A stretch of 64,000 nucleotides of DNA, taken from the NCBI GenBank assembly GCA_041397845.1, contig JAWKVW010000009.1:26906-90905 (forward strand). The letters are read 5' to 3'. The translations under genes and the position numbers were made by a program. This DNA is from Hyphomicrobiales bacterium. GTDB taxonomy: Bacteria > Pseudomonadota > Alphaproteobacteria > Rhizobiales > JAKPQE01. The notes beneath the pieces were generated by a model. That model was not told the DNA's origin, ran no database searches, and was given only the letters and a program-made list of their open reading frames with translations. Numbering within the stretch: the stretch's first letter is position 1; each line of letters begins with the position of its first letter. Shown here piece by piece: positions 40,687 through 62,999 of the stretch.

Positions 40687-40699
40687 GACGGGGGCGCCG

Positions 40700-41487: not shown

Positions 41488-41489
41488 TC

Positions 41490-43046: not shown

Positions 43047-43626
43047 CGACGTTGCCGTGCCCGAGGAGGTGGCAACGTTCGTTGCCGTTGCCCGGCGGAC
43101 CGGGGCGGACATCCTGACCTGCGCGTCGAGCCTCTTTGAGGGGGCAGAGCCGCCGGCGCGGCCGGAGCGGCTCTGGGTGGCGCTCGGCGGGGCGCTTGGC
43201 GCGGGCATCTTCCAGAACGCCTTCGGCAGCGTCAATGCGTTCTGGCGGCGGCAGGTCTATCTCGATCTCGGCGGCCACACGACCGACTACGGCATCGGCT
43301 ATGAGGACTGGGAAATGTTCGCGCAGGCGATGATCGCCGGCTACCGGCTTGATCTCGTGCCGCGCGCGCTCTTTCACTATCGCGTCTCGACGACGGGGAT
43401 GCTGCGCACCACCGACGTCGACACCAACCTTGCGCGCAGCGCCCGTGCCTTCGTCAAACATGCGCCGCTCGGCCTCGGAGTGGCGATCGGCCATGCCGTT
43501 CACCTCGAGCGCCAGCACGAACTCGCCCGGCGCAAGCGACCGACCTACGGCGAGTTGATCCGGCGGGACATCGGCTGGACGCGGCGCTGGCTCCGGCGGC
43601 GGCTCCGGCGCTGGTTCGGAATCTGA
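42724..43626 (+). CDS. glycosyltransferase family 2
   Basis: ATG at 42724 (alternative start 42745). Motifs: PLVTVCITTFERPALLAEAIASIEAQTYPAIEIVVVDDGS and FMDDDD. Confidence 0.75.
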   Translation: MLLGAPAMGKADGETPLVTVCITTFERPALLAEAIASIEAQTYPAIEIVVVDDGSRKPETLAALDRLAAAFAPRGWQVLRQENAYVGAARNTGTAAARGEYILFMDDDDVAVPEEVATFVAVARRTGADILTCASSLFEGAEPPARPERLWVALGGALGAGIFQNAFGSVNAFWRRQVYLDLGGHTTDYGIGYEDWEMFAQAMIAGYRLDLVPRALFHYRVSTTGMLRTTDVDTNLARSARAFVKHAPLGLGVAIGHAVHLERQHELARRKRPTYGELIRRDIGWTRRWLRRRLRRWFGI

Positions 43627-43643
43627 AAAGGACGGCTGCCGCC

Positions 43644-44999: not shown

Positions 45000-45260
45000 T
45001 CACTGATCGCGGCGCTCAATCTGGTCCGGATCGGCGGTGATGGCCCGATAGATCTCGACGCGATCGCCTTCCTCGAGGGTGGCGTCGAGCTTCATGATGC
45101 GGCCGAAGACGCCGACCTTCTGGCGCTCCAGGTCGATATCGGGGAACTGCACCAGAATGCCGGAGCGCTCGATGGCCTCGTGCACCGTGCAGCCGTCCGG
45201 CATTTCCATTCGCAGCCACACCTTGTGCACCGGGGTGACGTAGGCGACGCCGATGTTCAT
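45000..45260 (-). CDS. rnfH: RnfH family protein
   Basis: 86 aa. The ubiquitin-like RnfH/UPF0125 pattern ends in EEGDRVEIYRAITADP. It is the last gene of the rnf operon. Confidence 0.85.
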   Translation of the reverse strand: MNIGVAYVTPVHKVWLRMEMPDGCTVHEAIERSGILVQFPDIDLERQKVGVFGRIMKLDATLEEGDRVEIYRAITADPDQIERRDQ

Positions 45261-45299
45261 GCGGGTGGTCTCCTGTGGCGGGATTTTCCCGGAAATGTC

Positions 45300-45995
45300 C
45301 TAGATCGTGATTTCCTTGCCGCCGCTCTCCACGGCTGCCGCGCCGCGGTTTTGCGTTGCGCGACGCCGCAGCTCATAGGCACGGCGGGCGGCGAGCAGCA
45401 GCGACAGCACGATGAAGCCGCCGGGCGGCAGGATCAGCAGCAAGACGCCCTTGTAGGACGGAATGACGGTCGTCTCGAGAACGCGGAAATGCTCGCCGAG
45501 CAGCAGCGAGGCGTTGGCAAAGAGCGTACCCGACCCGAGAATCTCGCGGATCGCACCGACGACGACGAGGGCGAAGGTGAAGCCAAGGCCCATCATCAGG
45601 CCGTCGAACATTGCCGGCAGCACGGGCGATTTCGAGGCAAAGCTCTCGGCCCGGCCGAGGATGACGCAGTTCGTGACGATGAGCGGGATGAAAAGGCCGA
45701 GCACCTTGTAGAGGTCATGCAGCCAGGCATTGATGGCGAGATCGACGATGGTCACGAGGATGGCGATGATCAGGACGAAGGCGGGGATGCGGATTTCCGG
45801 CTCGATCACCCGCCGCATGACGGCGATGAGGAAGCCGGAGGCGATGAGGACGGCCGTTGTCGCCAGCCCCATGCCGAGGCCGTTCGTTGCCGTTCCGGTC
45901 AGCGCGAGCAGCGGGCAAAGCGCGAGCATCTGCGAAAAGACGACATTGTTTGCCCAGAGGCCGTCGCGGGCAATCTGCCGATAACCGGTGCTCAT
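45300..45995 (-). CDS. rnfE: electron transport complex subunit RnfE
   Basis: Trimmed to the ATG at 45995 ([31 protein letters not shown]). Confidence 0.9.
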
Positions 45996-46690
45996 TTCTT
46001 TTCTCCCCCTGGCCGTGCGGTGAGTGTCGGGCGTTCGGCGTCGAAAAATTCGAGCCCCTCCCGCACGGCGGCAACGACGGCGCGCGGCGTGATGGTTGCT
46101 CCGGAAAACTGGTCGAAATGACCGCCGTCCTTCTTCACGCCCCACTTGTCCTTCGGCGGATTGCCGAAGGAAAGACCGGCAAAGCCGAGGATCCAGGGCC
46201 CTTTCGCTTCCTCGATCTTGTCGCCAAGGCCCGGCGTCTCGGCATGCTGCAACACCCGCACGCCGAGCAGGCTGCCGTCAGCGGCAACGCCCATCAGGAT
46301 GCGGATGGCGCCGCCATAGCCCTGGCCGGTGACCTCGTAGGCGACCGCCCTGACCTCGCCGCCGGAGAGGGCCGGGTAGATGGTGCGGCCGGTGCCGTCA
46401 GTCATGGCGATTGTGTACTGGTCGCGGACGGGGTCGTTGTCATGAACCGATGCCGGTACGACGAGGGCGAGCGATCCGAGCAGGTCTTCCTTCATCCGCT
46501 CGGCGATGGCGCCTTGCGTGGCATTGTGGCTTGAGGCGAGCAGGCCGGCGCCGCCGAGGGCGAAGGCGCCGAGCAGGGCCGCCAGATAGAGCGGCGAGCG
46601 CCCGCCCGCCCGGGACGTGCCGCCACCGGCCAGGCCGAGCCGGGCTTTCAGGCGGTCGAGAAACGAGGTGTCGCTGGCTGGCTTGTCCAT
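45992..46690 (-). CDS. rnfG: electron transport complex subunit RnfG
   Basis: 232 aa with an N-terminal anchor and an FMN-attachment region ([14 protein letters not shown]). 4-nt overlap with rnfE. Confidence 0.85.
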
Positions 46691-46699
46691 CGTCCGACC

Positions 46700-47773
46700 T
46701 CATTTCTCGTCATAGCGGATCGGCTCGCCCGAGCGCTTGCGCCCGTAGATGCGTGGCCGGATCGTGTGGTCGATGATGGGCACGGTCGCGTTCATCAGCA
46801 GCACGGCAAAGCCGATGCCTTCCGGATAGGCGGCGAAGGTGCGGATGACGAAGGTGAGGAGGGCGACACCGGCGCCGAAAAGGAGCTTGCCGGTGCCCGT
46901 TGCCGGCGCGGTGACGTAGTCCGTGACGATGAAGAAGGCGGCAAACAGGAACGTTCCGGAGAGGAGATGGGCTGCCGGGTCGAGGAAGCGCTGCGGGTCG
47001 ATGAGGTGAAACGTGCCCGAGAGCGCTGCCATCGTGGCGATCATGGCGACCGGGGCGTGCCAGGTGATGACCCGTGTCGCAAGCAGCAGGATGCCGCCGG
47101 CAACGAGCAGAACGGCCGATGTCTCGCCAAGCGATCCCGGCACCATGCCGACCGCGAGCGACAGGGTGTCGTGGCCGCCCTTGAGGATGTCGGAAAGGGC
47201 CAGCCCCTGACCGAGCTGGGTTTTCACCGAGCCGAGAACCGACGCGCTGGAAACCGCGTCGAAGTCTGGATGGCCGCTGAGAAAGATCGAAAAGCCTTCC
47301 GCAATGCCGGGTGAGCCGGCCGAGAACAACGGCCGCGGTTCGAGGAACTGGGTCATCTCGACCGGGAACGAGATCAGCAGGAAGATGCGGGCGATCATGG
47401 CCGGGTTGAAGACGTTCTGGCCGAGGCCGCCGAATGCCTGCTTGCCAAGGACGATGGCGACGAAAGCGCCAAGGACGCCGATCCACCATGGCGCCCAGGG
47501 CGGCAGGGTCATGGCGACGATCCAGCCGGTGAGGAGCGCCGAGCCGTCGAGCAGGAACGGCCGGACGGGCTTGCCGGCAACGCGCAGCGAGGCGGCCTCG
47601 AAGGCAATCGCGGCGGCGATCGTTGCCAGGAACAGAAACAGCGCCGGCCAGCCGAATGCATAGATGCCGAAGGCTGTCGCCGGCAGCAGCGCGACGACGA
47701 CGAGGCCCATGGTGCGGCCGATGCTGGCGCCGGAATGGGCGTGCGGCCCGCCGACAGGTCCTTTGGCGATCAT
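46700..47773 (-). CDS. rnfD: electron transport complex subunit RnfD
   Basis: Trimmed to the ATG at 47773 (MIAKGPVGGPHAHSGASIGRTMGLVVVALLPA). Polytopic. 4-nt overlap with the rnfC stop. Confidence 0.9.
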   Translation of the reverse strand: MIAKGPVGGPHAHSGASIGRTMGLVVVALLPATAFGIYAFGWPALFLFLATIAAAIAFEAASLRVAGKPVRPFLLDGSALLTGWIVAMTLPPWAPWWIGVLGAFVAIVLGKQAFGGLGQNVFNPAMIARIFLLISFPVEMTQFLEPRPLFSAGSPGIAEGFSIFLSGHPDFDAVSSASVLGSVKTQLGQGLALSDILKGGHDTLSLAVGMVPGSLGETSAVLLVAGGILLLATRVITWHAPVAMIATMAALSGTFHLIDPQRFLDPAAHLLSGTFLFAAFFIVTDYVTAPATGTGKLLFGAGVALLTFVIRTFAAYPEGIGFAVLLMNATVPIIDHTIRPRIYGRKRSGEPIRYDEK

Positions 47774-49257
47774 GCGTCCACCTGTGCCCTGGCGGCCGCG
47801 TCGGCCTGCCGTTTCTTGGCGTCGCGCTCGGCCTTCATGCGCGCCATGGCCTCTTCCTTGGCCTTGCGCTGCTGCTCCATCCTGTCGGTGCGAAGGCGGG
47901 CGAGGCGTTTGGTTTCTTCCTGCTTGTGCCTGGCGCGCTGCTGCGCGGTCAGCTTGCCCTTGGCGTAGTTGAAGTACTGGACGAGCGGGATGTTGGCCGG
48001 ACAGACCCAGGCGCAGGAGCCGCAGGCAATGCAGTCGAGAAGACCGATCTTCACCGCCCCGTCGAGTTCCTCCTTGCGGATGCGCGCCGCCATTTCGAGC
48101 GGGGTCAGCCCGCAGGGACAGGCACTGACGCAGGAGCCGCAGCGGATGCACGGCATTGCCGCCTCGCGCGGTGCCTCGTCGGCGCCGAGCGCGAGGATGC
48201 CGTTGATGCCCTTCACGATCGAGGCGCGGGTGCTCGACAGCGGCTGGCCCATCATCGGGCCACCGAGCAAGAGGCGCTTCGGTTCGCCGACGAAGCCGCC
48301 GCAATGCTCGATGAGGTGGGAGACCGGCGTGCCGATCGGCACCTCGAAATTGCCGGTGCGGGCCATCGCCCCGCCACTCACCGTGACGATGCGTGAAATC
48401 AGCGGCCGGCCGTGCCGCACGGCCTCATGCACGGCATAGGCGGTCGCGACATTGTGGACGACGATGCCGATATCGGCGGTCAGGGCGCGCGCCGGCGTCT
48501 CCTTGCCGGTCAGCGCCTGCACGAGGTGCTTTTCCGAGCCCATCGGATAGCGCGTCGGCACCTCGACGACGGCGACGTCGGCAAAGCCGCCGGCTGCAAC
48601 GGCGAGCCGCAGCGCGGCGAGGGCCTGCGGCTTGTTGGCCTCGACGGCGATGATCGCCCTTGCGACGCCGAGGCCATGGCGCATGATGCGGATGCCGTCG
48701 ACGACGTCGCCGGTGCGCTCGCGCATCAGCCGGTCGTCGCAGGTCAGATAGGGCTCGCACTCAGCCGCGTTGATGACCAGCGTCTCGAGCGTGTGGCGGT
48801 TGCGCAGGTTGAGCTTGACGGCTGACGGGAAGGTTGCCCCGCCCATGCCGACGATGCCGCTCGCGGCGACGCGCTCGGCAATTGCGGCGGGATCTACGGC
48901 GAAAGGATCGAGCGGGGCGGGGAGCTCGCCCCACTCGTCCCTTCCGTCCGGGCGCATGGTGATCGTCTGGCCGGGAAGACCCGACGCATGCGGCGCGATG
49001 AAACGCCCGATCGAGACGATGCGGCCGGACGTCGGGGCATGAACCGGCGCCGAGACCATGCCACGGCCGGTGGCAAGCAACTGGCCCTTCCTGACGACGT
49101 CGCCGCGATCGACGACGGCCACGGCCGGCGCGCCGATGTGCTGCTGCAGGGGAATGCGCAGGACGCTGGCCAGCGCCAGGCGCTCGATCGGCTTTTCGGC
49201 CGACAGCTCCTTGCGCTCGCTCGGGTGGATGCCGCCGCTGATGCGGAATAGCTTCAT
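47770..49257 (-). CDS. rnfC: electron transport complex subunit RnfC
   Basis: 495 aa with SGGIHPSERK, an NADH-binding region (GIVGMGGATFP) and two 4Fe-4S motifs (CIRCGSCVSACP, CIACGSCAWVCP). It has a Lys/Ala/Glu-rich tail. Confidence 0.9.
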   Translation of the reverse strand: MKLFRISGGIHPSERKELSAEKPIERLALASVLRIPLQQHIGAPAVAVVDRGDVVRKGQLLATGRGMVSAPVHAPTSGRIVSIGRFIAPHASGLPGQTITMRPDGRDEWGELPAPLDPFAVDPAAIAERVAASGIVGMGGATFPSAVKLNLRNRHTLETLVINAAECEPYLTCDDRLMRERTGDVVDGIRIMRHGLGVARAIIAVEANKPQALAALRLAVAAGGFADVAVVEVPTRYPMGSEKHLVQALTGKETPARALTADIGIVVHNVATAYAVHEAVRHGRPLISRIVTVSGGAMARTGNFEVPIGTPVSHLIEHCGGFVGEPKRLLLGGPMMGQPLSSTRASIVKGINGILALGADEAPREAAMPCIRCGSCVSACPCGLTPLEMAARIRKEELDGAVKIGLLDCIACGSCAWVCPANIPLVQYFNYAKGKLTAQQRARHKQEETKRLARLRTDRMEQQRKAKEEAMARMKAERDAKKRQADAAARAQVDA

Positions 49258-49275
49258 CGCTTCGTCCCTTCGCCG

Positions 49276-49812
49276 TCAGGCGGCAAGCCGGTTGGCCGGC
49301 TTCGGCCAATGCCAGGTCGTCAGGGTGTCGGTTTCCGGGCGCATCACGATCGCCCCGGTCGGGCAAACCTCGGCGCATTGCTCGCATCCGGTGCAGGCGT
49401 CGTCGACGACGCCGTGGATCTGCCGCGACGCGCCGACGATGGCGTCCGTCGGGCAGCGCTTCAGGCACTTGGTGCAGCCGATGCACAGGTCCTCGAAAAC
49501 GAAGGCGATGACAACGCCGCGGTCCTCCATGTCCGAGAGGTCGGAGGCGATGCCGAGCTTGTCGGCGAGGGCCGTCGCCAGCGCCTTGCCGCCGGGCGGG
49601 CAGAGCGATACCGGGGCCGCGCCTTCGGCGAGCGCCTCGGCCGCCGCCGAACAGCCCGGAAAGCCGCATTGGCCGCAATTGGTGCCGGGCATCATCTGCT
49701 CGATTTCAGCCGCGACCGGATTGCCCTCGACCCGCAGCAGCCGCGCCGCCAGGCCGAGGCCGCCGCCGAGGGCGACGCCCAGTCCCATCAGAATGCCCAT
49801 GGCCTCGATCAT
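49276..49812 (-). CDS. rnfB: electron transport complex subunit RnfB
   Basis: 178 aa with an N-terminal anchor, CGQCGFPGC, and ferredoxin motifs CIGCTKCLKRCP and CTGCEQCAEVCP. Confidence 0.9.
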   Translation of the reverse strand: MIEAMGILMGLGVALGGGLGLAARLLRVEGNPVAAEIEQMMPGTNCGQCGFPGCSAAAEALAEGAAPVSLCPPGGKALATALADKLGIASDLSDMEDRGVVIAFVFEDLCIGCTKCLKRCPTDAIVGASRQIHGVVDDACTGCEQCAEVCPTGAIVMRPETDTLTTWHWPKPANRLAA

Positions 49813-49833
49813 TGGCGTTCTCCCTGAAACCGG

Positions 49834-50415
49834 CTACTGGGCAACGAGCCCGGCAAAGCCCATGAAGGCGAGCGACAGGAACCCGGCCGTGAGGAAAGCG
49901 ATCGGCGCACCCGAGAAGGCCGCCGGTACGTCGGCGAGCCGCAGCCGTTCGCGCAGGCCGGCGAAAAGAACCATGACGAGAGTGAAGCCGGCGGCCGAAC
50001 CGAAGCCGTAGAGCATGCTCTCGGCGAGGTTGTGGTCTTCCTGCACGTTCAGGAGCGCGACGCCGAGCACGGCACAATTGGTGGTGATGAGCGGCAGATA
50101 GATGCCCAGCACCTGATGCAGCACCGGCGAGATCTTCTTGATCGCCAGCTCGGTGAACTGCACCACGGCGGCAATGACGAGAATGAAGGTCAGTATCCGC
50201 AGGTAGCCGAGCCCGAACGGCGCCAGCACCAGATGCTCGAGGATCCAGCCGGCCGTTGCCGCAACGGTCAGCACAAACGTCGTCGCAAAGCCCATTCCGA
50301 CGGCGGCTGACAGTTTCTTGGACACGCCCATGAACGGGCAAAGGCCAAGGAACTTGACCAGCACCACGTTGTTCACCAGCGCCGTCCCGAGCAGGATGAT
50401 GAGATAATGTTCCAT
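49834..50415 (-). CDS. rnfA: electron transport complex subunit RnfA
   Basis: Trimmed to the ATG at 50415 ([34 protein letters not shown]). Confidence 0.9.
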
Positions 50416-50461
50416 ACGCCCGACCGCTCCGTCGCCATCGATTGCGTCCGGTGAGCGAGCA

Positions 50462-50476
50462 GCATTAACCGTGCCA
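50462..50476 (-). promoter_or_regulatory. candidate sigma-54 (-24/-12) promoter of the rnf operon
   Basis: The reverse complement reads TGGCAC-GGTTA-ATGC (GG-N10-GC). It lies about 47 nt upstream of the rnfA ATG. Confidence 0.55.
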
Positions 50477-50546
50477 GCGGCGCGCCGGACATGCTGCGAT
50501 GCGGAAAAGTCCGTGCTTTCCGCGAGTTGCCGGCCGATCCGGAATT

Positions 50547-50562
50547 TGTCCGCGATCCGACA
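50547..50562. promoter_or_regulatory. NifA-type upstream activator sequence TGT-N10-ACA
   Basis: The sequence is tgtccgcgatccgaca, in the rnfA-nifL intergenic region. Confidence 0.5.
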
Positions 50563-50587
50563 ACGACGACCGCTCCGACACCGGGTT

Positions 50588-50603
50588 TGTCGGGAAGCCG
50601 ACA
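50588..50603. promoter_or_regulatory. NifA-type upstream activator sequence TGT-N10-ACA
   Basis: The sequence is tgtcgggaagccgaca, in the rnfA-nifL intergenic region. Confidence 0.5.
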
Positions 50604-50659
50604 AGGAAAGACTGTCGTCGTGCAGTAAATCCGGCGCTTCTCCCGGCAATTCACCCCGA

Positions 50660-50714: not shown

Positions 50715-52361
50715 ATGACAGAGCGGAACGCAGGCGACGACAGGCGAAGCGCGACCGAAGCGCTTGCTGCGGTGCTCACGTCCTTGCCGGAAGACCTGCC
50801 GCCGGAGATCCGCAGCATCTTCGGCGCGGCGCTGACGCCGCACGATCATCACCTGCCGCCGCGGCTCTACCAGGAAGCGGTGGAGGCAATGTCGGTCGCG
50901 GTCTCGATCACCGATCGCGACGCCAAGATCCTCTATGTCAATCCGGCCTTCGAGCGGCTGACGGGATATGCCTCCGAGGACATCGTCGGCCAGAACGAAA
51001 GCGTTCTTTCGAACAAGCGGACGCCGCGCTCCGTCTATCTGGAGCTCTGGGAAACGATCAGGGGCGGCAATGTCTGGCAGGGCCGCCTCATCAACCGCAA
51101 GCGCGGCGGCGAACTCTACCTCGCCGAGCTGTCGATCGTCCCGGTGAAGAACCGCGCCGGCGCCATCGGCTATTTTCTCGGCATGCACCGCGACATCACC
51201 GAGATGCACCACCTGCAGCGCAAGGTGGAGAACCAGAAGAACCTCATCCTGAGCATCCTCGACGGTGCGCCGGTGGCGATCGTCCTCATCGACCTGAAGG
51301 GCGTCGTGCTCGTCGCCAATCGCGCCTACCGACGCCTTGCCGCGGACATGAAGGACGTCGAGCCGGCGAGCTATTTCGTCGAGATGCTGCGCCCGCAGCT
51401 CGGCGACGATCTCGTCGATGCCAGCGCCGAGGAGAGGACGCTTGCCGGCGCCGAGGTGCGCTGGCCGCAGGGCGGCGGCTCCGGCGGGCGGTGGTTCTCC
51501 TGTTCGACGCAGTGGGTGCGCGAGTTCGAGCTGTCGGCGGACACCTATTTCGAGACCCGGGTGCAGGACGCGATGCTGCTGGTCATCAGCGAAATCACCG
51601 GCCTGAAGCGGCAGTACGAGCAGACGCGGTTCCTTGCCGTTCGGGCGCAGATGGCCGATCTGGAAATGCGCCTGACGACCCGCGAGATGATCGACGGCGC
51701 GCTCTACCAGCTTCAGGGGCCGCTCAACATCATCCAGGCTATGGCCGGCATGCTGCAGCGGCGCGAGGGCGAGGACGCCCGTTTCGGCCATGCCGTCGAC
51801 GAGGCGCTGTCGTCCGGCAATCGCGCCGTCGAGCGCCTGCGCGTCTCGCTGCCGCCGTTTTCGCGCGAGGTCATGTCGCCGGTAAATCTCAATCAGGTGA
51901 TCCGCGACGTGCTGGTGCTGACCGCCGACCGCCTCTCGGCCAACGGCATCGTTGTCGACTGGCAGCCGGATCGCGAGCTGCCGTCGGTGTTCGGCCAGGA
52001 AAACCTGCTGCGGATTCTTCTGAAGGTGCTTGTCGACAACGCGATTACCGCGGTCGGCGAGCCGGGATCGCGGAGCCGCGAAGTGCGGGTGGCGACCCGC
52101 GCCGACGACGAGGTCATCGAGCTCTGGGTGCGTGACGGCGGCCCGGGCATCGAACGGTCGATCCGCTCCAAGGTTTTCGAGCCGTTCTTTTCGGCCTGGT
52201 CGCGCAGTCCGCGCTCGGCCGGCATGGGCCTTGCGATTGCCCAGCAGATCCTGACCGAGCTCGGCGGCGACATTCACATCGACACGGCGCCGTCGGAGGG
52301 CGGCGGGATGTGCGTCTGGCTGCCCGCTTGCCGGCCGCACAAGGGGGAGCCGCAGGCATGA
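50715..52361 (+). CDS. nifL: nitrogen fixation regulatory flavoprotein NifL (PAS-PAS-H-GHKL)
   Basis: 548 aa. PAS1 reads [49 protein letters not shown]...[41 protein letters not shown]. This closely parallels the Azotobacter vinelandii NifL sequence as I remember it. The C-terminus is GHKL-type (VRDGGPGI...GMGLAIAQ). The stop overlaps the nifA start (ATGA). Confidence 0.85.
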
Positions 52362-53989
52362 ACGATATCCCCGAGAATTTCGGCGGCAGCCGCATCTGTC
52401 CGAGACCGGTTTTCTGCGCCTTCTACAAGCAGGAGCTGGAGACGCTTTATCAGGTCAGCCGCGTGCTTGGCCGCTCGCTCGACCTGCAGCAGACGACGCA
52501 TGACGTGCTGGAGCTGCTGCACGAGGAGGGGCTGCTGCACCACGGCATGATCTGCCTGCTCGACAACGAGACCGGCGAGCTGAATGCGATCGATGTCCAT
52601 GGCGGGGCCGGAACGCCGGGCACGCATTACCGGTCCGGGGAGGGCATTGTTGGCGCTGTTCTGGCCGCCCGCGACCGCATCATCGTGCCGCGCATCGCCG
52701 ACGAGCCGCGCTTTCTCGGCCGCCTCGGGGTCTATGATCCGGAGCTGCCGTTCATCGGCGTGCCGATTTTCTATGGCGCCGACGAGACGCTCGGCGTTCT
52801 GGCCGCCCAGCCGGCCGCCGGCGATCGCTTCCTTGAGGATCATGCCAAGCTGATGGAGATGATCGCCTCGCTCATCGCCCAGACGCTGCATCTGTCAAAG
52901 TCGATCGAGCAGGAGCAATCGCAGCTTCGCTCGGAACGGGACCGCCTTCGCCGGCACGTCAAGCAGCAGCACGGCTTCGACCGCATCGTCGGCGATACGC
53001 CCGCCATGCGGATGGTCTTCGATCAGGTCCGTGTCGTTGCCAAGTGGAACACGACGGTGCTCATTCGCGGCGAGTCCGGCACGGGCAAGGAACTCATCGC
53101 CAATGCGATCCACTACAATTCGCCGCGCTCGAGCGCCCCGTTCCTGAAGCTCAACTGTGCCGCCCTGCCGGACAACCTGCTCGAATCGGAGCTTTTCGGT
53201 CACGAGAAGGGGGCATTCACCGGCGCTGCCAGCATGCGCAAGGGCCGCTTCGAGCAGGCCGACGGCGGCACGCTCTTCCTCGACGAGATCGGCGAAATTT
53301 CCCCGGCGTTCCAGTCGAAGCTGCTGCGCGTGCTGCAGGAAGGCGAGTTCGAGCGCGTCGGCGGCAACCGGACGCTGAAGGTCGACGTGCGCATCATCGC
53401 GGCGACCAACAAGGATCTGGAGGCGGCGGTCGAGACCGGCACCTTCCGCGAGGACCTCTACTACCGGCTCAACGTCATGGCGATCAACATGCCGGCGCTG
53501 CGCGAGCGCATCGACGATATTCCGGAGCTGGCGCGCTTCCTCGTTGGCCAGGTGGCGGCAAAGCAGGGGCGCGACCTCATCCTGACCGACAGCGCCGTGC
53601 GCCTGCTGATGCGGCACACCTGGCCGGGCAATGTGCGGGAGCTCGCCAACTGCGTCGAGCGCGCCGCGATCATGAGCCTGGACGGGACGATCGACCGCGA
53701 TGCCGTCGTTGCCTCGGGTATCCAGGACAAGGCTGCGGGAACGGCGCCGCCGCGGCCGTTCGCCCAACCTGCGCCAAAGCCCGTGCCGCCGGCCGAGGCG
53801 GTGCAGCCAAGGCCCGCCGTGCCGGCGCGCACTGTGCCGGAATCAGAGGCCGACGAGCGCGAGCGGATCATCGCCGCGCTCGAGGAGGCCGGCTGGGTGC
53901 AGGCGAAGGCCGCCCGGCTGCTCGACATGACGCCGCGACAGATCGCCTACCGGGTCAAGATCCTCGACATCAAGATGCGCCGCATCTGA
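52358..53989 (+). CDS. nifA: nif-specific sigma-54-dependent transcriptional activator NifA
   Basis: ATG at 52358. It has a GAF domain and an AAA+ domain ([31 protein letters not shown]). The C-terminal HTH is [26 protein letters not shown]. Confidence 0.95.
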
Positions 53990-54070
53990 GGTCGCCAAGC
54001 CCGCATCGCGACGGCCGGTCCGCATTATGCCGGGCCGGCCATTTCGCATTTCCGCAGGCCGGGCAGGGAT

Positions 54071-54086
54071 TGTCACGAACAGCACA
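54071..54086. promoter_or_regulatory. NifA UAS TGT-N10-ACA upstream of nifB
   Basis: The sequence is tgtcacgaacagcaca. Confidence 0.55.
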
Positions 54087-54104
54087 ATGCCGCGCTGCCG
54101 CAAT

Positions 54105-54120
54105 TGTCGGGTTTGCCACA
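54105..54120. promoter_or_regulatory. NifA UAS TGT-N10-ACA upstream of nifB
   Basis: The sequence is tgtcgggtttgccaca. An AT-rich tract (aatactattcaaaaacaatcatatat) separates it from the -24/-12 element. Confidence 0.6.
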
Positions 54121-54185
54121 GCGAAGTGCCGATGGCGGTCCGGAAATACTATTCAAAAACAATCATATATCCCTTCCGGCCGGCT

Positions 54186-54200
54186 TGGCATGGCGGTTGC
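54186..54200 (+). promoter_or_regulatory. sigma-54 promoter of nifB
   Basis: TGGCAT-ggcgg-TTGC, about 68 nt upstream of the nifB ATG. Confidence 0.7.
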
Positions 54201-54267
54201 TGATGAAGGCTCGGGATCCGTGATCGGGCCTGCTTTGCAGGACCCAGCGCACGAATGGAGCCATGGC

Positions 54268-55740
54268 ATGGAACTGAAGGTTCTTGGACCGGCCAAGCCG
54301 TCCGCCGGCGGGTGTTCGAAGAGTGCATGCGGCTCGACCGCCGACCAGATGAGCCATCTGCCGGAAGCGATCCGCGAGCGGGTGAAGAACCATCCCTGCT
54401 ATTCCGAAGAGGCGCACCACCATTATGCCCGCATGCATGTCGCCGTCGCGCCGGCCTGCAACATCCAGTGCAACTACTGCAATCGCAAATACGACTGCGC
54501 CAACGAGAGCCGGCCGGGCGTCGTCTCCGAACTGCTGACGCCGGATCAGGCGGTCCGCAAGACGCTGGCGGTTGCCGCCGCCATCCCGCAGATGTCGGTG
54601 CTCGGCATTGCCGGCCCCGGCGATCCGCTGGCAAATCCGTCCCGCACCTTCGAGACCTTCCGCCAGCTTTCCGACAAGGCGCCGGACATCAAGCTCTGCG
54701 TGTCGACCAACGGCCTTTCCCTGCCCGAACATGTCGACGAACTCGTTCGCCACAACATCGACCACGTCACGATCACCATCAACTGCGTCGACCCCGAGGT
54801 CGGCGCCCGCATCTATCCGTGGATCTTCTGGAAAAACCGGCGCATCCGCGGCCGCAAGGCAGCCGAGATCCTGATCGAGCAGCAGCAGCGCGGCCTGGAA
54901 ATGCTGGTCGCGCGCGGCGTGCTGGTGAAGGTCAATTCGGTCCTCATTCCGGGCGTCAACGACGACCACCTCGTCGAGGTGAGCCGTGTCGTCAAGGCCA
55001 AGGGCGCGTTCCTGCACAACGTCATGCCGCTCATCGCCGAGGCCGAACACGGAACGTACTACGGCGTCATGGGCCAGCGCGGACCGACCCAGGCCGAACT
55101 GACGGCGCTGCAGGATTCCTGCGGCGACATGAACATGATGCGCCACTGCCGGCAGTGCCGGGCCGACGCCGTCGGTCTTCTCGGCGAGGATCGCGGCCAG
55201 GAATTCACCATGGACAAGATCGACGTCATGGAGATCGACTACGCCGCCGCGATGGAAAGGCGGGCGACGATCCATGCCGCCATCGAGGCGGCGAGGGACG
55301 AGGAGCGCACTGCTGCCGCGCCGGCGCCGGTCGCCGCGCTGCCGGCGGACGCGCGTCTGGTGCTGATGGCGGTCGCCAGTGCCGGGCAGGGTGTCGTCAA
55401 CCAGCATTTCGGTCATGCCCGGGAGTTCCTCATCTACGAGGCCGGGCCGTCGGGCGTGCGCTTCGTCGGCCATCGCAAGACAGACCAGTACTGCGTCGGC
55501 AGTTCGACCTGCGGCGACACCGAGACGGCGCTCGAGCGGACGATCCGCGCCCTTGCCGGCTGCGAGGTCGTGCTCTGTTCCAAGATCGGCATCGAACCGT
55601 GGGGGGCGCTGGAAGCCGCCGGCATCCAGCCGAACGGCGAGCACGCGATGGAACCGATCGAGGCGGCCGTTGCCGCAGTCTATCGCGAGATGGCCGAGGC
55701 CGGCGCGCTCGTCACCGACAGCCTTGCGCAAAGCGCCTGA
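54268..55740 (+). CDS. nifB: nitrogenase FeMo-cofactor biosynthesis radical SAM protein NifB (with NifX-like C-terminal domain)
   Basis: The listed 898-aa ORF was trimmed to the ATG at 54268. Motifs: HPCYSEEAHHHYARMHVAVAPACNIQCNYCNRKYDCANESRPG. The C-terminal domain is NifX/NafY-like (LMAVASAGQGVVNQHFGHAREFLIYE). Confidence 0.95.
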   Translation: MELKVLGPAKPSAGGCSKSACGSTADQMSHLPEAIRERVKNHPCYSEEAHHHYARMHVAVAPACNIQCNYCNRKYDCANESRPGVVSELLTPDQAVRKTLAVAAAIPQMSVLGIAGPGDPLANPSRTFETFRQLSDKAPDIKLCVSTNGLSLPEHVDELVRHNIDHVTITINCVDPEVGARIYPWIFWKNRRIRGRKAAEILIEQQQRGLEMLVARGVLVKVNSVLIPGVNDDHLVEVSRVVKAKGAFLHNVMPLIAEAEHGTYYGVMGQRGPTQAELTALQDSCGDMNMMRHCRQCRADAVGLLGEDRGQEFTMDKIDVMEIDYAAAMERRATIHAAIEAARDEERTAAAPAPVAALPADARLVLMAVASAGQGVVNQHFGHAREFLIYEAGPSGVRFVGHRKTDQYCVGSSTCGDTETALERTIRALAGCEVVLCSKIGIEPWGALEAAGIQPNGEHAMEPIEAAVAAVYREMAEAGALVTDSLAQSA

Positions 55741-55750
55741 GGACAAGGTC

Positions 55751-56026
55751 ATGGCCTATTCGATCACAGCGCTCTGCGTGAACTGCTTTGCCTGCCTTGA
55801 TGTCTGCCCGAGCCGGGCGATCGCCGAGGCAAAGCCGCATTTCACCATCGATGCCCGGAAATGCAGTCATTGCGAGGGCGAACATGCCGACCCGCAATGC
55901 GCCAGCATCTGCCCGGTCGAAGGCGCCATTCTCGATGCCGAGGGCCTTGCCGCCAATCCGCCGGGGTCGCTGACAGGCATTCCGCCCGAAAGGCTGCAGC
56001 AGCTCGCCGCCGCCGGCGTCCTCTGA
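55751..56026 (+). CDS. fdxN: 4Fe-4S ferredoxin (FdxN-like)
   Basis: 91 aa with Cys clusters CVNCFACLDVCP and CSHCEG...CASICP. It lies immediately after nifB. Confidence 0.75.
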   Translation: MAYSITALCVNCFACLDVCPSRAIAEAKPHFTIDARKCSHCEGEHADPQCASICPVEGAILDAEGLAANPPGSLTGIPPERLQQLAAAGVL

Positions 56027-56036
56027 GGGTGAAGCG

Positions 56037-57647
<1,611 letters not shown>

Positions 57648-57696: not shown

Positions 57697-58059
57697 ATGC
57701 CCAAGATCATTTTTCAACATCCCGAATATGACGAGATCGAGGTCTACGCTCCGGCCGGCAGCCACCGCAAGACGGTGCTGTCGCTGGCCAAGGAGTTCAA
57801 GGTTCCGATCAACTTCGACTGCGGCGACGGCGAGTGCGGCACCTGCGTCATCCGCGTCACCGACCTTGCCGGCGGGCCGACCCACATGGGCACGCACATG
57901 ACCGACAAGGAAAAGACGGTCCTGCGCGAAATCGGCAAGCTCAGCAAGGACGAGCTGGAAAAGGTCGTCGTCAACGACCTGCCGAGCGAGTGGCGTCTGG
58001 CCTGCCAGATGATCGTTCGCGACGAGGACATCCGCATCACATACGAGAAGCGGTTGTGA
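57697..58059 (+). CDS. 2Fe-2S ferredoxin
   Basis: 120 aa with the Cys ligand pattern CGDGECGTC...LACQ. Confidence 0.75.
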   Translation: MPKIIFQHPEYDEIEVYAPAGSHRKTVLSLAKEFKVPINFDCGDGECGTCVIRVTDLAGGPTHMGTHMTDKEKTVLREIGKLSKDELEKVVVNDLPSEWRLACQMIVRDEDIRITYEKRL

Positions 58060-58649
58060 CCGGACCGGGCGCCGGCCTTGCCGCTGGCGGCCTCACCCTC
58101 CATCAGGCGCTCCAGCAGCGCCTGATGCGGATGGGGCGCGGCGGGCTCAACGAGGTGTTCGTCGCCCAGATGCTGGCAAGCTGGATGGCGGGGCGCGGTG
58201 TCCTGCCATCGGCCATGGGGCTTGACCCGAGCCTATTCCGGCAGATGCTCGACTGGCACTTTCCGGGCATCGGCCCATTCGACGACCGGCGGGCGGGCGT
58301 TGCGGCGCTGCCCCGTCCCGATGAACTCGACGACGTGCGCATGCTGCTCGACAGCCACCGCGCCGGCCGGTCGATTTCGGAACTCTGGATGACGGAAATC
58401 GTCGCCCTCGGCTGCATGGGCGGCGATCACCTCTGGTCGGATCTCGGGCTGTTCTCGCGCGATCAGTTGAGTGCCCTGATGATGCTGAATTTCCCGACGC
58501 TTGCCGCCGCCAACAGCCGCAACATGAAATGGAAGCGGTTCCTCTACAAGCAGCTCTGCGAGGCCGAAGGGGTTCATGCCTGCCGGGCGCCGAGCTGCGA
58601 GGCCTGCGCCGACTATGGCAACTGCTTCGTGCCGGCCGAGGCCGAATAG
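58056..58649 (+). CDS. nifQ: nitrogen fixation protein NifQ
   Basis: C-terminal Cx4Cx2Cx5C motif (CRAPSCEACADYGNC) and LWSDLGL...NMKWKRFLY. The GTG at 58056 overlaps the upstream stop (alternative ATG at 58125). Confidence 0.85.
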   Translation: MTGPGAGLAAGGLTLHQALQQRLMRMGRGGLNEVFVAQMLASWMAGRGVLPSAMGLDPSLFRQMLDWHFPGIGPFDDRRAGVAALPRPDELDDVRMLLDSHRAGRSISELWMTEIVALGCMGGDHLWSDLGLFSRDQLSALMMLNFPTLAAANSRNMKWKRFLYKQLCEAEGVHACRAPSCEACADYGNCFVPAEAE

Positions 58650-59713
58650 GCGGCTGGCGGCACCGTTGCCGCACCGGCGACGACCATCCTGTGGTCCTTG
58701 CCGTCCTCGATGCGCAGCCGCGACTTCATCGTGGCCGTGAGATAGAGGGTACCGGCTCCATCGACGAGCACCACATCGGTGACGCCCATGCGGGCGGCGA
58801 CGGCCGGCCACTCGCCGGGGCCTGCCACCGACAGCGCCGTTGCCGCGCCATCGGCCAATGCGCCATCCCGATGAATGACGCTCGCCGAGACGATGTCACG
58901 GACCGGCCAGCCGGTGCGCGGGTCGAGGATGTGCGAATAGACGATGCCGTCGTGCTCGAGAAACCGATTGTAGTTGCCCGACGTGTGCAGCGCTTCGCCG
59001 GGGGCAAGCTCGACCGAGGCGATGACGCCCCAGCCGCGCGGATCGCGGATCGCGACCCGCCAGGGCCGCGCGCCATGCCGGCCGATCACCTTGACGCCGC
59101 CGCCGGCATTGATGACGGCGTCGACTATGCCGGCCGACGCCAGCTCACCGGCGGCCCAGTCGAGCGCCGCGCCCTTGGCGAACCCGCCGAAATCAAGCTG
59201 AACGGCGGGATTGCGCGATGATGCCACCGCGCCCTCGACCCGGACGTCGGCCATCGACGGGGCGCCGGCAACGAGCGCGGCGATTTTGCCGGCGTCCGGC
59301 GGCGGGCCCTGCGGCAGGTCGTCGGCATGAAAGCCCCAAAGGCCGATGAGGCTGCCGATGGCGGGATTGAACAGTCCGCCGCTCGTCTCCTCGAGGTGTC
59401 TTGCCGTTTCGATCGCGTCGGCAAGGAGCGGCGAGACCGCCATCGACCGGCCTTCGGCGAAGGCCGCGTTGAGGTCGGTCATCTCGCCGGGCTTCCAGGC
59501 GTTCCAGTCGCGCTGCATGCGGCCGAAGCCTTCGGCGATGCCGGCGAGGGCCGGCGCGGCTCGCTCGCGGTCCTTTTCGGCAATGACGATCTCGGTCAGC
59601 GTGCCGAAGACGTAAAGCGTGGTGCGATATTCCCCGGCATCCGGCTCGCAGGCGGCAAACAGAACCGCGCTCGCCAGCAGAAGAATGGAGCGGACGCCGG
59701 CCCGCATGGTCAT
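58613..59713 (-). CDS. apbE: ApbE-family FAD:protein FMN transferase (RnfF-like lipoprotein)
   Basis: Trimmed to the ATG at 59713. It has a lipobox (LLLASAVLFAAC) and the motifs GLFNPAIGSL, DFGGFAKGAALD, LHTSGNY and HILDPRTGWP. Confidence 0.85.
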   Translation of the reverse strand: MTMRAGVRSILLLASAVLFAACEPDAGEYRTTLYVFGTLTEIVIAEKDRERAAPALAGIAEGFGRMQRDWNAWKPGEMTDLNAAFAEGRSMAVSPLLADAIETARHLEETSGGLFNPAIGSLIGLWGFHADDLPQGPPPDAGKIAALVAGAPSMADVRVEGAVASSRNPAVQLDFGGFAKGAALDWAAGELASAGIVDAVINAGGGVKVIGRHGARPWRVAIRDPRGWGVIASVELAPGEALHTSGNYNRFLEHDGIVYSHILDPRTGWPVRDIVSASVIHRDGALADGAATALSVAGPGEWPAVAARMGVTDVVLVDGAGTLYLTATMKSRLRIEDGKDHRMVVAGAATVPPAAYSASAGTKQLP

Positions 59714-60189
59714 TCGACGTCGCAGCCGGATGCGGGGGCCGGGCCAATGAGAACCGGCGCAAGGCCCCGGGCGAGGCCGGACGAGCGGACGACGAGGTAG
59801 CCGCCGCAAAGGCCGGCGACAGCGGCAAGGCCGACGCCGACCTCGGCGGTGCCAAGGCCGGCCGCGATCGCGGCCATGACGACCATGGCCGCTGCCGGAA
59901 TGAGGTAGGCAATTGCCGCGCCGGCGACGATCGAACTCTCGCGAATGCCGAGAACCACCCTCGTGCCGACCGGAAAGTCGCGGTCGGTCGCGACCCGCAG
60001 CGTTGCCGGCGCGCTGGAGACGAGCCGCGACAAGGTCGCCGTGCCGCAGCTCGAAGCGATGCCGCAAGTGGCGCAGCCGGCGGTCCGGTGCGGCAAGAGA
60101 AGAAGGAACCGGCCGTCGCGCGCGAGCACGGTCGCTTCCGCCTCGACGAGGTCGGCGAGGTCAGGCGCGAGGGGAGATTCGACGGTCAT
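59710..60189 (-). CDS. RseC/MucC-family protein
   Basis: 159 aa with an N-terminal Cys-containing beta domain (HRTAGCATCGIASSCG) and two C-terminal TM helices. It has 4-nt overlaps on both sides. Confidence 0.7.
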   Translation of the reverse strand: MTVESPLAPDLADLVEAEATVLARDGRFLLLLPHRTAGCATCGIASSCGTATLSRLVSSAPATLRVATDRDFPVGTRVVLGIRESSIVAGAAIAYLIPAAAMVVMAAIAAGLGTAEVGVGLAAVAGLCGGYLVVRSSGLARGLAPVLIGPAPASGCDVE

Positions 60190-60587
60190 GACGTGGCCCC
60201 TTTCGCTTTCAGGTGCGCGGCGAGCGCGCTGTCCATGGTCGCTGCGTGGAGATCGAACCAGCGCGGCAGTTCGCGCACATATTCGCGCCCAAAGGCGAGG
60301 AAGCCGCGCTCGACCCGGTTGCCGATCTGGCGCATCTGGCCGAGCACGCGATCATGCTCGCTGCGATGCTCGCCAAGCGCGGGAAAGCCGCTTTCGACCA
60401 TCAGCTCGTCCTCGAAGGCAAAATGCGCGACGGTATGGGCGCCGAGTTCGGCAAAGAGCGCCCGGAACGCGGCGCTGTCGGGCGCTGCGTCGAGCCGGTT
60501 CACGAGGTCGGCGAATTCGCGATGCATCTCATCCATCGCCGCGACATCGAGCCGGTGCCGATCGTCGTTCCAGACGAGCAGGGTCAT
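60186..60587 (-). CDS. hemerythrin-like metal-binding protein
   Basis: 133 aa with the H...HxxxE...HxxxH...HxxxxD ligand pattern (HREF, HFAFEDE, HRSEHDRV, LHAATMD). Confidence 0.8.
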   Translation of the reverse strand: MTLLVWNDDRHRLDVAAMDEMHREFADLVNRLDAAPDSAAFRALFAELGAHTVAHFAFEDELMVESGFPALGEHRSEHDRVLGQMRQIGNRVERGFLAFGREYVRELPRWFDLHAATMDSALAAHLKAKGATS

Positions 60588-60826
60588 CGGGCAAGGTCCG
60601 GCGTCAGCGTCTGGATGCGGGCGCGGCGGCCGCGGCGGACGGCAGCGAGGTCGACGATTTTCGCCGTCGGCGAGGCCGACCAGCCCGCCGCGTTGCCGGG
60701 CGGCAGCGCGTTTTCGCGCCGTTTGCCGCCGTGCAGCCAGGGCGGCGTCGCAAGGTTCCGCGATGCCGGGGCAGGGCAGGTGGTCGATCGGATTTTCCGT
60801 TCCGTCTCGGTCGGGTGTTGCGGCAT
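60584..60826 (-). CDS. small hypothetical protein (80 aa)
   Basis: The ATG at 60826 is preceded by aggaga at the right spacing. The stop forms an ATGA overlap with the hemerythrin start. Third codon positions are overwhelmingly G/C. No family recognised. Confidence 0.4.
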   Translation of the reverse strand: MPQHPTETERKIRSTTCPAPASRNLATPPWLHGGKRRENALPPGNAAGWSASPTAKIVDLAAVRRGRRARIQTLTPDLAR

Positions 60827-60857
60827 GGGGAGCCTCTCCTGCAACAGGACGTTTCGG

Positions 60858-61706
60858 TCAGGCGGCAACGGGCGCGTTTGCGACAGCCTCGAGGAAGCCG
60901 GCAACATCCATCCGGATGACCTCGATCCGCTTTTTCTTCAGGAACCGCATTTCCTTCTCGGTCGGCTCGGGGATCAGCGCCCAGCCGGCCGGCTCGCCGG
61001 CATCGTGGATGATGTCGGACATGACCATGCGCTCGGTGTCGCGGTTGAACCGCATGCCGAGGAAGAGATAGCGCTTGCCGACGCGGCCGGACTTGAGGAA
61101 CGAGGGCATGCCGAAGCCGCCCATCAGCTCGGTGATGTAGTCGACGTAGTCCGCGTCCGAGGCGATGAACAGCGGCTCGGGAACGGGGGAGCCGGCCGGC
61201 TTGAAGAGGACGGGCAGGTTCGTGTCGGCCTGCTCGAGGCTGACGCCGCGATAGGCCGTGCCGTCATGCTGTGAAAGAACGAAGCGATAGTCAGTGCCGC
61301 CGATGCGGGCGACACCGCGCACCAGGAGGTGCGGCACCGTCGCATAGCTCTCCTGAAGCTGCGTGTCGCGATTGACGTCGATGACATAGGCCGGGCGCAC
61401 GGTTGCCAGCCAGTCGTGCAGCGGCGCCCGTGTCCACTTCGTCTCGCCATAGGTCTTGGTCAGGAACTGGTCGATGAAGCGGCGGCCGCGCTTCGGGTTC
61501 ATGGCGGCGCGCGGGAACTCGAACATCAGCTTGGGCGCCATCGGCCGACCGCCGTTCATGGCCAGGATGAGGCTGTCGCTGTCCGCCGGTATCGGCGCGC
61601 CCGTCGCCTTGTCGTGTGCGCCGGCGAGCGCTCCCGGCCCGAGATAGGGAACGACGTTGCCGGCGCGTAGGCCGGCGACGATATCGGCGGAGTCGATTGG
61701 CTGCAT
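60858..61706 (-). CDS. SIR2-like domain protein (SIR2_2-type)
   Basis: 282 aa. VVPYLGPGAL resembles the GAGxS motif and HDWLATVRPAYVIDVNRDTQLQESY resembles the TTNYDxLxE motif. A later block reads LFIASDADYVDYITEL...RYLFLGMRFNRD. The assignment is from memory of PF13289 and has not been searched. Confidence 0.6.
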   Translation of the reverse strand: MQPIDSADIVAGLRAGNVVPYLGPGALAGAHDKATGAPIPADSDSLILAMNGGRPMAPKLMFEFPRAAMNPKRGRRFIDQFLTKTYGETKWTRAPLHDWLATVRPAYVIDVNRDTQLQESYATVPHLLVRGVARIGGTDYRFVLSQHDGTAYRGVSLEQADTNLPVLFKPAGSPVPEPLFIASDADYVDYITELMGGFGMPSFLKSGRVGKRYLFLGMRFNRDTERMVMSDIIHDAGEPAGWALIPEPTEKEMRFLKKKRIEVIRMDVAGFLEAVANAPVAA

Positions 61707-61750
61707 CTTTCCACGCTCGCTTCATCCGTTGTGTTCTGGATTACCGGCTA

Positions 61751-61765
61751 GCAAGAAGCGAACCA
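61751..61765 (-). promoter_or_regulatory. candidate sigma-54 promoter for the SIR2-like operon
   Basis: The reverse complement reads TGGTTC-gcttc-TTGC (GG-N10-GC). It lies about 45 nt upstream of the ATG at 61706. Confidence 0.35.
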
Positions 61766-61896: not shown

Positions 61897-61912
61897 TGTC
61901 GGCAAACCGACA
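61897..61912. promoter_or_regulatory. NifA UAS TGT-N10-ACA between the SIR2-like operon and nifH
   Basis: The sequence is tgtcggcaaaccgaca. A near-copy of the nifB UAS, tgtcgggtttgctgca (TGT-N10-GCA), is at 61836..61851. Confidence 0.6.

Positions 61913-61991: not shown

Positions 61992-62999
<1,008 letters not shown>

Follow-up and report, generated by a model that had tools for sequence, protein, structure and literature searches.

A pnfA-like SIR2 gene heads a putative composite nif accessory operon divergent from nifH in a Hyphomicrobiales bacterium

The 64,000-nucleotide stretch of Hyphomicrobiales DNA analysed here (contig JAWKVW010000009.1, positions 26,906 to 90,905; hereafter the window) contains a nitrogen fixation (nif) region in which five closely spaced open reading frames (ORFs) occupy the minus strand at 58613-61706, divergent from nifH (62067-62999, plus strand). 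The first gene (60858-61706) encodes a SIR2_2-like protein of 282 aa and 30.96 kDa (PF13289, E=3.6e-9), which very probably belongs to the pnfA family of nitrogen fixers. It is followed by ORF80 (60584-60826), coding for a small, basic product of 80 aa with an isoelectric point of 11.8 and no family match; a hemerythrin gene (60186-60587; 133 aa; PF01814, E=2.9e-13); an RseC/MucC-family gene (59710-60189; 159 aa; PF04246, E=8e-19); and a gene for an ApbE-family FAD:protein FMN transferase (58613-59713; 366 aa; PF02424, E=1e-62). An earlier note on this DNA, made from the letters alone, had given the content, coordinates, strand and divergence from nifH of this unit, and all of these sequence-level statements are correct. 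So is its report of ATGA-type junctions among four of the five genes, as three such overlaps are present (ORF80/hemerythrin, hemerythrin/RseC and RseC/ApbE). A 31-nt gap separates the SIR2-like gene from ORF80, and a sequence scan of 58613-61706 revealed neither a minus-strand terminator nor a sigma-70 promoter inside the unit. At its distal end, apbE converges with nifQ (57834-58649, plus strand), and the 3' ends of the two genes share 37 bp (58613-58649). Judged from sequence, the locus is best read as a composite nif accessory operon, a locally novel arrangement of a known gene family.

The promoters of the unit and of nifH share a NifA box, the perfect palindrome TGTCGGCAAACCGACA at 61897-61912. 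The -24/-12 sigma-54 promoter of the unit, TGGTTCGCTTCTTGCT (61750-61765, minus strand), has two mismatches to the consensus, keeps the correct GG/GC spacing and lies approximately 45 nt before the start codon of the SIR2-like gene; the nifH promoter, TGGCACAGCCTTTGCT (62022-62037, plus strand), matches the consensus perfectly. Sites of the form TGT-N10-ACA occur seven times in the window, against 2.7 expected, and are clustered at nif and rnf promoters; four of the other six lie upstream of rnfA (50547-50603) and nifB (54071-54120). The same architecture recurs at homologous loci in other genomes, 78 of which were available for these counts. An equivalent upstream activator sequence (UAS) precedes the homologous gene at 61 of them, compared with 9% of control segments. 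At 50 of them, against 1.1% of controls, the 400 bp before the gene hold a UAS with a -24/-12 site in register. The controls were 1366 segments drawn from the same homologous loci, and this pattern is not due to chance. Near-identical -24/-12 sites stand before the homologous gene in the relatives L002, L003, L009, L070 and L080. The proposed link of the SIR2-like gene to a NifA box is thus upheld, by the box and promoter in the window and by their conservation elsewhere.

The suggestion that the 282-aa protein is SIR2-like is borne out by structure prediction. At a cut-off of E≤1, its sole Pfam match is PF13289 (SIR2_2), confined to residues 153-264; of the two other profiles proposed for checking, PF02146 (sirtuin) and PF07357 (DraT), neither is matched. 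An AlphaFold2 (AF2) model built from 26 homologues reached a predicted local distance difference test score (pLDDT) of 84.7 and a predicted template modelling score of 0.86, and the best PDB neighbours found for it with Foldseek were DSR2, KomC, ThsA and AVAST5 (E approximately 4e-9, template modelling score approximately 0.6, 13-16% identity). These matches to defence sirtuins indicate that the modelled protein has a SIR2 fold in a single domain. At the level of sequence, the family profile matched no PDB entry even at E≤10, and neither NCBIfam nor PADLOC holds a model that matches the protein. Membership in a defence system was considered and rejected, given the absence of a PADLOC match.

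The active site departs from that of catalytic SIR2 enzymes at the position of the catalytic histidine. In two alignments (A1 and A2), this residue corresponds to Ala171 of the window protein, within LFKPAGSP, which confirms the replacement suspected in the earlier note; in two distant relatives, the equivalent position reads KPHGS and TPHGS. Among close homologues from the fetched loci, 77 were readable at this position and six were not, by the residue pattern used. The readable ones carry methionine (64), leucine (10), alanine (2) or valine (1), and never histidine. By contrast with the lost histidine, the window protein retains Asn112/Asp114 and the G23-P-G25 loop. All 81 of the 81 homologues compared retain the N-R-D asparagine (Asn112), and the glycine loop reads GPG or GAG. 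The window protein contains no cysteine and therefore no sirtuin zinc module. The absence of histidine from every close homologue read makes a canonical deacylase or NADase mechanism unlikely, and, on these sequence features, PnfA is unlikely to be a canonical deacetylase or NADase. Nucleotide binding remains plausible despite the loss of the histidine. DSR2 H171A is the variant behind the nicotinamide adenine dinucleotide (NAD+)-bound DSR2 structures, whose PDB entries are among the Foldseek matches. Two further features were seen in the wider family. A Gly-Cys C-terminus after a variable tail (VGC or IGC) ends 28 of approximately 83 homologues, but not the window protein, and may represent a conserved terminal cysteine. 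In one 840-aa representative protein (P0265), a PnfA-like domain forms the C-terminus (residues 555-838).

The family is small and isolated, since only 461 representatives were recovered at E≤1e-3 among 1.84 billion sequences clustered at 50%. Approximately 4400 relatives of the SIR2-like protein are present in a set of 5.8 billion proteins, and at least 575 species genomes encode one. They come from alpha-, beta-, gamma- and zeta-proteobacteria, Campylobacterales and Leptospirales. The best relatives of the window protein belong to Hyphomicrobiales and Rhodobium (68-71%), with 80% identity at locus L002. At 66 of the 81 loci mapped, the SIR2-like gene lies no more than 10 kb from nif, rnf or dra genes, and the remaining 15 belong to lineages known for nitrogen fixation. 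As sampled, the family is overwhelmingly nif-associated, and the expected conservation of the gene beside nif genes is therefore found. A second subfamily, at 25-29% identity, is located after nifB-(fdxN)-nifZ-nifT; it was seen on the Rhizobium etli plasmid p42d, on 71 other plasmids, mostly rhizobial, and in one Rhodobacteraceae genome. Unusual conservation of PnfA was also considered and rejected. Median identities to the window proteins across classes are 64% for the SIR2-like protein, 63% for the flavodiiron-type protein (FDP) encoded nearby, 60% for NifA and 91% for NifH, so that PnfA is in line with FDP and NifA.

The immediate neighbours of the gene were counted only at loci with enough flanking sequence (61 upstream and 70 downstream). 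The commonest order, exemplified by the Sedimenticola locus, is nifH(-), draT(+), [DUF3144(-)], SIR2(+), [ORF77(+)], hemerythrin(+), draG(-), nifQ, fdx, fdx, FDP, nifB. On the upstream side, draT precedes the SIR2-like gene at 14 of 61 loci and nifH lies within 3 kb at 20 of 61; on the downstream side, a hemerythrin gene follows at 31 of 70 and a convergent draG is present at 29 of 70. The pair of SIR2-like and hemerythrin genes recurs in alpha-, beta- and gamma-proteobacterial loci. An RseC gene follows at one of 70 loci (L002), and RseC-ApbE comes after the SIR2-like gene only there and in the window. In Cohaesibacter sp. ES.047, the SIR2-like gene stands alone between nifH and nifQ. Co-occurrence therefore speaks against the five genes as a conserved set, and in the window they form a local variant that is modestly interesting.

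Not every pnfA-type gene stays within a nif cluster. In some Chromatiaceae it is located away from nif, between housekeeping genes. Thiocapsa imhoffii and Thiocystis violascens (L032 and L078) are such cases, with the gene alone among those for a DeaD helicase and an Mrp-type antiporter, and for a ribulose-phosphate epimerase, a HAD hydrolase and Lon protease. Even so, the UAS and -24/-12 pair persists at 19 of the 32 loci without a recognised gene upstream, so that a pnfA-type gene that has moved out of a nif cluster may still be under NifA control. The same pair is present in 7 of 13 gaps between draT and pnfA, which weakens the idea, entertained as an alternative, that pnfA is co-transcribed with draT.

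Several smaller features accompany the gene in other genomes. ORF77, encoding approximately 77 aa, lies between the pnfA-type and hemerythrin genes in gammaproteobacterial loci (19 of 70; for example L001, 10870-11103, plus strand), among them those of Thiodiazotropha and Sedimenticola. Its product has a Cys-rich N-terminus, PCQGKSACRDDELRCLTCGR, matches nothing in Pfam or NCBIfam and is unrelated to ORF80 of the window. A divergent DUF3144 gene, placed between draT and pnfA immediately upstream of the latter, occurs at 9 of 61 loci in Thiodiazotropha and Sedimenticolaceae (for example L001, 9520-9756, minus strand); the UAS and -24/-12 sites of pnfA fall inside the DUF3144-pnfA gap in 13 of 14 such loci. 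A Rhodocyclaceae locus (L051) gave two tblastn matches to the pnfA-type protein, at 8263 and 10001, approximately 1.7 kb apart.

The earlier note had suggested that the SIR2-like protein could belong to a new control or protection system. The family itself is not new; it was described in 2010 and has since been noted in several nif clusters. Its founding member is pnfA, PST1325 of Pseudomonas stutzeri A1501 (Yan et al., 2010, BMC Genomics 11:11; PMC2820453), which encodes a protein of 31.7 kDa and diverges from nifHDK behind a -24/-12 promoter and a TGT-N10-ACA box. Quantitative reverse-transcription PCR showed that its expression requires NifA and RpoN, and homologues were reported in nitrogen fixers only (Azotobacter vinelandii, Azoarcus, Dechloromonas and Halorhodospira), where they form two subfamilies (PMC2820453). 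A complemented, non-polar pnfA mutant had 23% nitrogenase activity at 0.5% O2, wild-type activity in strict anoxia and no nitrate-supported activity, with nifH mRNA unchanged; its authors proposed a role in electron transfer or O2 protection and noted a local similarity to the alpha subunit of electron transfer flavoprotein (ETF-alpha) (PMC2820453). PST_1325 is now annotated as a "SIR2 family protein". Elsewhere, Rcc03262 of Rhodobacter capsulatus was not detected in a nifA1-A2 deletion mutant, ZMO1821 of Zymomonas mobilis is induced under N2 fixation, a SIR2_2 gene adjoins nifH in 23 of 25 Thalassolituus genomes, and sir2 has been reported within Paenirhizobium nif regions. Passing mentions of pnfA-type genes generally guess at lysine deacetylation, and a literature search found no later functional study of pnfA after 2010. 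Size, annotation, position, promoter type, taxon range and the two-subfamily structure together make it very likely that the window gene is a member of the pnfA family. Pseudomonas, Azotobacter, Azoarcus and Dechloromonas were absent among the named relatives (20 representatives, and a second search seeded with a Propionivibrio protein). What is new in the window is the operon arrangement; already known is the nif-specific pnfA family.

The second frame of the unit has the signs of a coding sequence. ORF80 has a third-position GC content of 0.83, a GGAGAGG Shine-Dalgarno sequence and ATGA coupling to the hemerythrin gene, and L002 has an equivalent open frame with the conserved islands PPWLHGG and VVDLAA. 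No homologue was returned from the 5.8 billion proteins other than the query itself, and no match was found in Pfam, NCBIfam or PADLOC; a single-sequence AF2 model yielded no confident fold (pLDDT 58.8). One conserved island holds a candidate internal sigma-54 site that matches at only approximately 7 of 11 positions by eye. The notion that ORF80 is the Cys-rich ORF77 of the same slot in gammaproteobacteria was rejected, as the two sequences are unrelated. ORF80 is possibly a lineage-specific gene for a small protein, with its status as a gene uncertain.

The hemerythrin of the unit has its full set of di-iron ligands (H22, H55, E59, H74, H78, H114 and D119), in the bacteriohemerythrin pattern H-HxxxE-HxxxH-HxxxxD. 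It scores 65.9 against TIGR02481, for which the cut-off is 51.75, and also exceeds that of PF01814, while staying below those of the equivalog models. Its orthologs downstream of the SIR2-like gene have a median identity of 51% across the 31 of 70 loci that possess one, and the protein is thus a frequent, non-obligatory partner. Another nif-linked hemerythrin, that of T. haligoni, has been proposed to serve in O2 defence.

The last two genes of the unit point to the Rnf complex. ApbE-type RnfF and RseC are accessory factors of Rnf/Rsx complexes, as in rnfF of R. capsulatus and rsxABCDGE-rseC of Escherichia coli. The RseC protein of the window scores 68 bits against PF04246 (cut-off 24.4) and 63 bits against NF008115, the model for RseC of the SoxR-reducing system, which is below the equivalog cut-off; it has an N-terminal C-x2-C-x5-C motif (CATCGIASSC) and hydrophobic C-terminal segments. 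RseC is also nif-linked, at another position, in two Chromatiaceae (L043 and L058). ApbE scores 212 bits against PF02424 and carries a lipoprotein-type signal, LLLASAVLFAAC, with the lipobox LFAAC, from which it is predicted to be a periplasmic lipoprotein flavin transferase. The window also contains an rnfABCDGEH operon, assigned by Pfam (45000-50649, minus strand), whose promoter region comprises two NifA boxes (50547-50562 and 50588-50603) and a -24/-12 site (50461-50476, minus strand). As its RnfG bears the flavinylation motif FSGAT, an instance of [ST]GA[TS], at residue 196, the proposal that RseC and ApbE act as Rnf helpers is plausible, and this complex is likely to be their client.

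The remaining nif region supplies the setting of the unit. Besides nifL (50715-52361), nifA (52310-53989) and nifB (53044-55740), it includes a ferredoxin gene beyond nifB, two 2Fe-2S ferredoxin genes before nifQ, and nifD. The nifB promoter region has boxes at 54071-54086 and 54105-54120 and a -24/-12 site at 54186-54201 on the plus strand. The FDP gene (56246-57295, plus strand), whose orthologs have Lactamase_B/ODP and flavodoxin domains, lies within the nifB-fdx-nifQ unit, a placement conserved in most related loci, and its product is a second candidate scavenger of O2/NO (nitric oxide) in the nif region. An alternative-frame ORF of 508 aa (54255-55781) overlies nifB; it was rejected as a second gene, because its tblastn matches to nifB regions of other genomes, at approximately 48% identity, are an artefact that arises from the conserved DNA of a GC-rich gene. 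Adjoining the rnf operon at 38009-44990 (plus strand) is a lipid or polyketide-like cluster with an acyl carrier protein, a ketoacyl synthase, two dehydratase-like proteins, a family-2 glycosyltransferase and several family-less proteins, preceded by LptF/G-like and DUF4833 genes.

The position of the unit next to nifH had also been read against the draT-draG system. NifH does retain the arginine of GCAGRGVIT, as had been stated; such a GCAGR-type arginine is conserved in Fe proteins generally and is therefore not diagnostic of DraT control. The window is equally devoid of draT and draG, as claimed, with no tblastn match to the Sedimenticola DraT and DraG queries anywhere in its 64 kb, and none of the five unit proteins matches the DRAT (PF07357) or ADP-ribosylglycohydrolase (PF03747) profiles. 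To say that the unit occupies the draTG position is thus literally true here, whereas in relatives draT and draG stand there together with the SIR2-like gene. The frequency of draT upstream and of convergent draG indicates that the gene coexists with draT and draG, commonly between them, rather than replacing them, and the idea of a stand-in falls away. In several relatives, the SIR2-like gene is present and draT and draG are not seen within approximately 10 kb.

Taken together, these features suggest a NifA/sigma-54-driven nif accessory operon of two modules, PnfA-hemerythrin and RseC-ApbE, a reading to which we give a probability of about one half. The first module would comprise the pnfA-type gene, the uncertain small ORF and the hemerythrin gene. 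PnfA, which has kept the glycine loop and the Asn/Asp of the nicotinamide-ribose pocket and lost the catalytic histidine, would bind a dinucleotide such as NAD(H), or ADP-ribose or a similar ligand, without consuming it. It would act post-transcriptionally to keep nitrogenase working during O2 or nitrate respiration, a role indicated by the P. stutzeri pnfA mutant, and the di-iron hemerythrin would contribute O2/NO binding as a buffer or sensor. In the second module, RseC and the periplasmic lipoprotein ApbE would assist and flavinylate the nif-specific Rnf complex, whose genes lie 9 kb away and which would feed electrons to nitrogenase. Orthology with PST1325, nucleotide binding without catalysis, the hemerythrin partnership and Rnf as the client of ApbE and RseC are the steps that we infer in building this scheme.

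Several points weigh against the two-module reading. Orthology with PST1325 is drawn from shared properties, and the AF2 model of PnfA, a putative nucleotide binder, is ligand-free. The 64% cross-class identity of PnfA, no higher than that of its accessory neighbours, reflects movement of the whole cluster between classes and not a special constraint. Hemerythrin is absent at more than half of the loci, with the ES.047 gene standing alone, so that a strict PnfA-hemerythrin partnership is not general; likewise, adjacency to RseC-ApbE in two genomes only means that their co-transcription may be incidental. Finally, both electron supply and O2 protection would account for the phenotype seen in P. 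stutzeri.

Electron supply is indeed the main rival, although we give it only a modest chance. PnfA, likened to the C-terminal domain of ETF-alpha, would bind NAD(H) or flavin and work with Rnf, delivering or regulating low-potential electrons for nitrogenase, with hemerythrin as a side player. The defect of the P. stutzeri mutant is confined to fixation driven by O2 or nitrate respiration, and its authors put forward electron transfer among the possible roles and pointed out the local ETF-alpha similarity (PMC2820453). In the window, the gene sits in one operon with genes for Rnf helpers, and nifLA-rnf is nearby at many loci. Yet the RseC-ApbE linkage holds at only two of 81 loci, the top 50 structural neighbours listed contain defence sirtuins and related NADases but no ETF, and subfamily 2 resides on rhizobial plasmids with fixABCX adjoining. 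Less likely is that PnfA uses NAD+ actively, as an ADP-ribosyltransferase, NADase or deacylase whose catalytic residue is non-canonical, and that, gated by hemerythrin, it would modify NifH or Rnf post-translationally. Such an enzyme would suit the SIR2 fold with its retained Asn112/Asp114 and glycine loop, the frequent neighbours draT and draG, which handle NAD+-dependent ADP-ribosylation, the post-transcriptional effect of the P. stutzeri mutation and the published speculation about deacetylation. It is difficult to reconcile with the absence of histidine from the catalytic position in all 77 close homologues read, with the use of the DSR2 H171A variant for NAD+-bound complexes, with the unmatched PF02146, the missing Zn-Cys4 module and the lack of any cysteine, with a NifA promoter separate from draT, and with the persistence of the gene where draT and draG are not seen within approximately 10 kb. 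The NAD-linked post-translational control envisaged in the earlier note is consequently unsupported in the form of a NAD-consuming modification enzyme.

Two other explanations dispense with a joint nif function. Neighbouring nif accessory genes might simply have come under one NifA promoter in this lineage and act independently, with ORF80 not being a gene at all. This would suit a set found in the window and L002 only, whose components occur separately elsewhere and whose ORF80 is an orphan, but the genes overlap at three ATGA junctions, a sign that their translation is coupled and their co-expression selected for, and the SIR2-hemerythrin pair recurs across three proteobacterial classes (31 of 70 loci). 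Independence is rather improbable. An anti-phage SIR2 NADase that merely happens to lie near nif genes is effectively refuted: the closest solved structures are defence sirtuins, but PADLOC is unmatched, the catalytic histidine is gone, a sensor domain or partner is absent, and 66 of 81 loci consistently show linkage to nif genes and to NifA promoters. A bolder extension of the two-module reading, which we regard as a long shot, is that the His-less PnfA reads NAD+/NADH or ADP-ribose without consuming it and forms, with hemerythrin, a switch or shield that is gated by O2/NO and by redox state and acts directly on the Fe protein of nitrogenase. If true, such a switch could provide the long-sought "energy/oxygen" signal that feeds or parallels DraT/DraG, and this would explain why pnfA so often lies between draT and draG.

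Few widespread nif-specific genes combine, as pnfA does, a clear phenotype with unsolved biochemistry. The present analysis ties the whole family, including its nifT-linked second subfamily, to nif clusters; places NifA/sigma-54 sites before most subfamily-1 genes (50 of 78 loci); finds the catalytic histidine absent from every close homologue read, counter to the deacetylase or NADase idea; and identifies draT, draG and hemerythrin as the usual neighbours of the pnfA-type gene. The hypotheses are thereby narrowed to nucleotide sensing, O2/NO protection or electron supply. The question is relevant to moving oxygen-tolerant nitrogen fixation into new hosts, as minimal nif sets usually omit pnfA-type genes.

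Comparison with known systems places the unit among several relatives in function or fold. With DraT/DraG, it shares the chromosomal niche next to nifH, a NAD-related fold and possibly the post-translational control of nitrogenase; however, PnfA is non-homologous to DraT (PF07357) and DraG (PF03747) and has its own NifA promoter. The defence SIR2 NADases (DSR2, ThsA, KomC/HAM-SIR2 and AVAST5) have the same SIR2_2 Rossmann fold, Gly-rich loop and asparagine, whereas the window protein differs in its replaced histidine, its 13-16% identity, the lack of a sensor domain and its nif context. Sirtuin deacylases (CobB/Sir2, PF02146) resemble it in the DHS-like NAD-binding fold and in an N-x-D motif similar to TQNID, but PF02146 is unmatched here, and both the catalytic histidine and the Zn-binding Cys4 module are absent. 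RnfF/ApbE and RseC of Rnf/Rsx systems are likewise an ApbE lipoprotein and an RseC membrane protein co-regulated with Rnf, whose RnfG carries a flavinylation motif; in the window, their counterparts lie outside the rnf operon, joined to the pnfA-hemerythrin unit 9 kb away. The closest likeness is with PnfA (PST1325) itself. Both genes diverge from nifH behind a TGT-N10-ACA box and a -24/-12 promoter, encode proteins of approximately 31 kDa (31.7 and 31.0) annotated as SIR2, are restricted to nitrogen fixers, belong to a family of two subfamilies approximately 20-29% identical, and come first in a short nif accessory operon. They differ in what follows: PST1324, PST1323 and nifY2 in P. stutzeri, and ORF80, hemerythrin, RseC and ApbE here.

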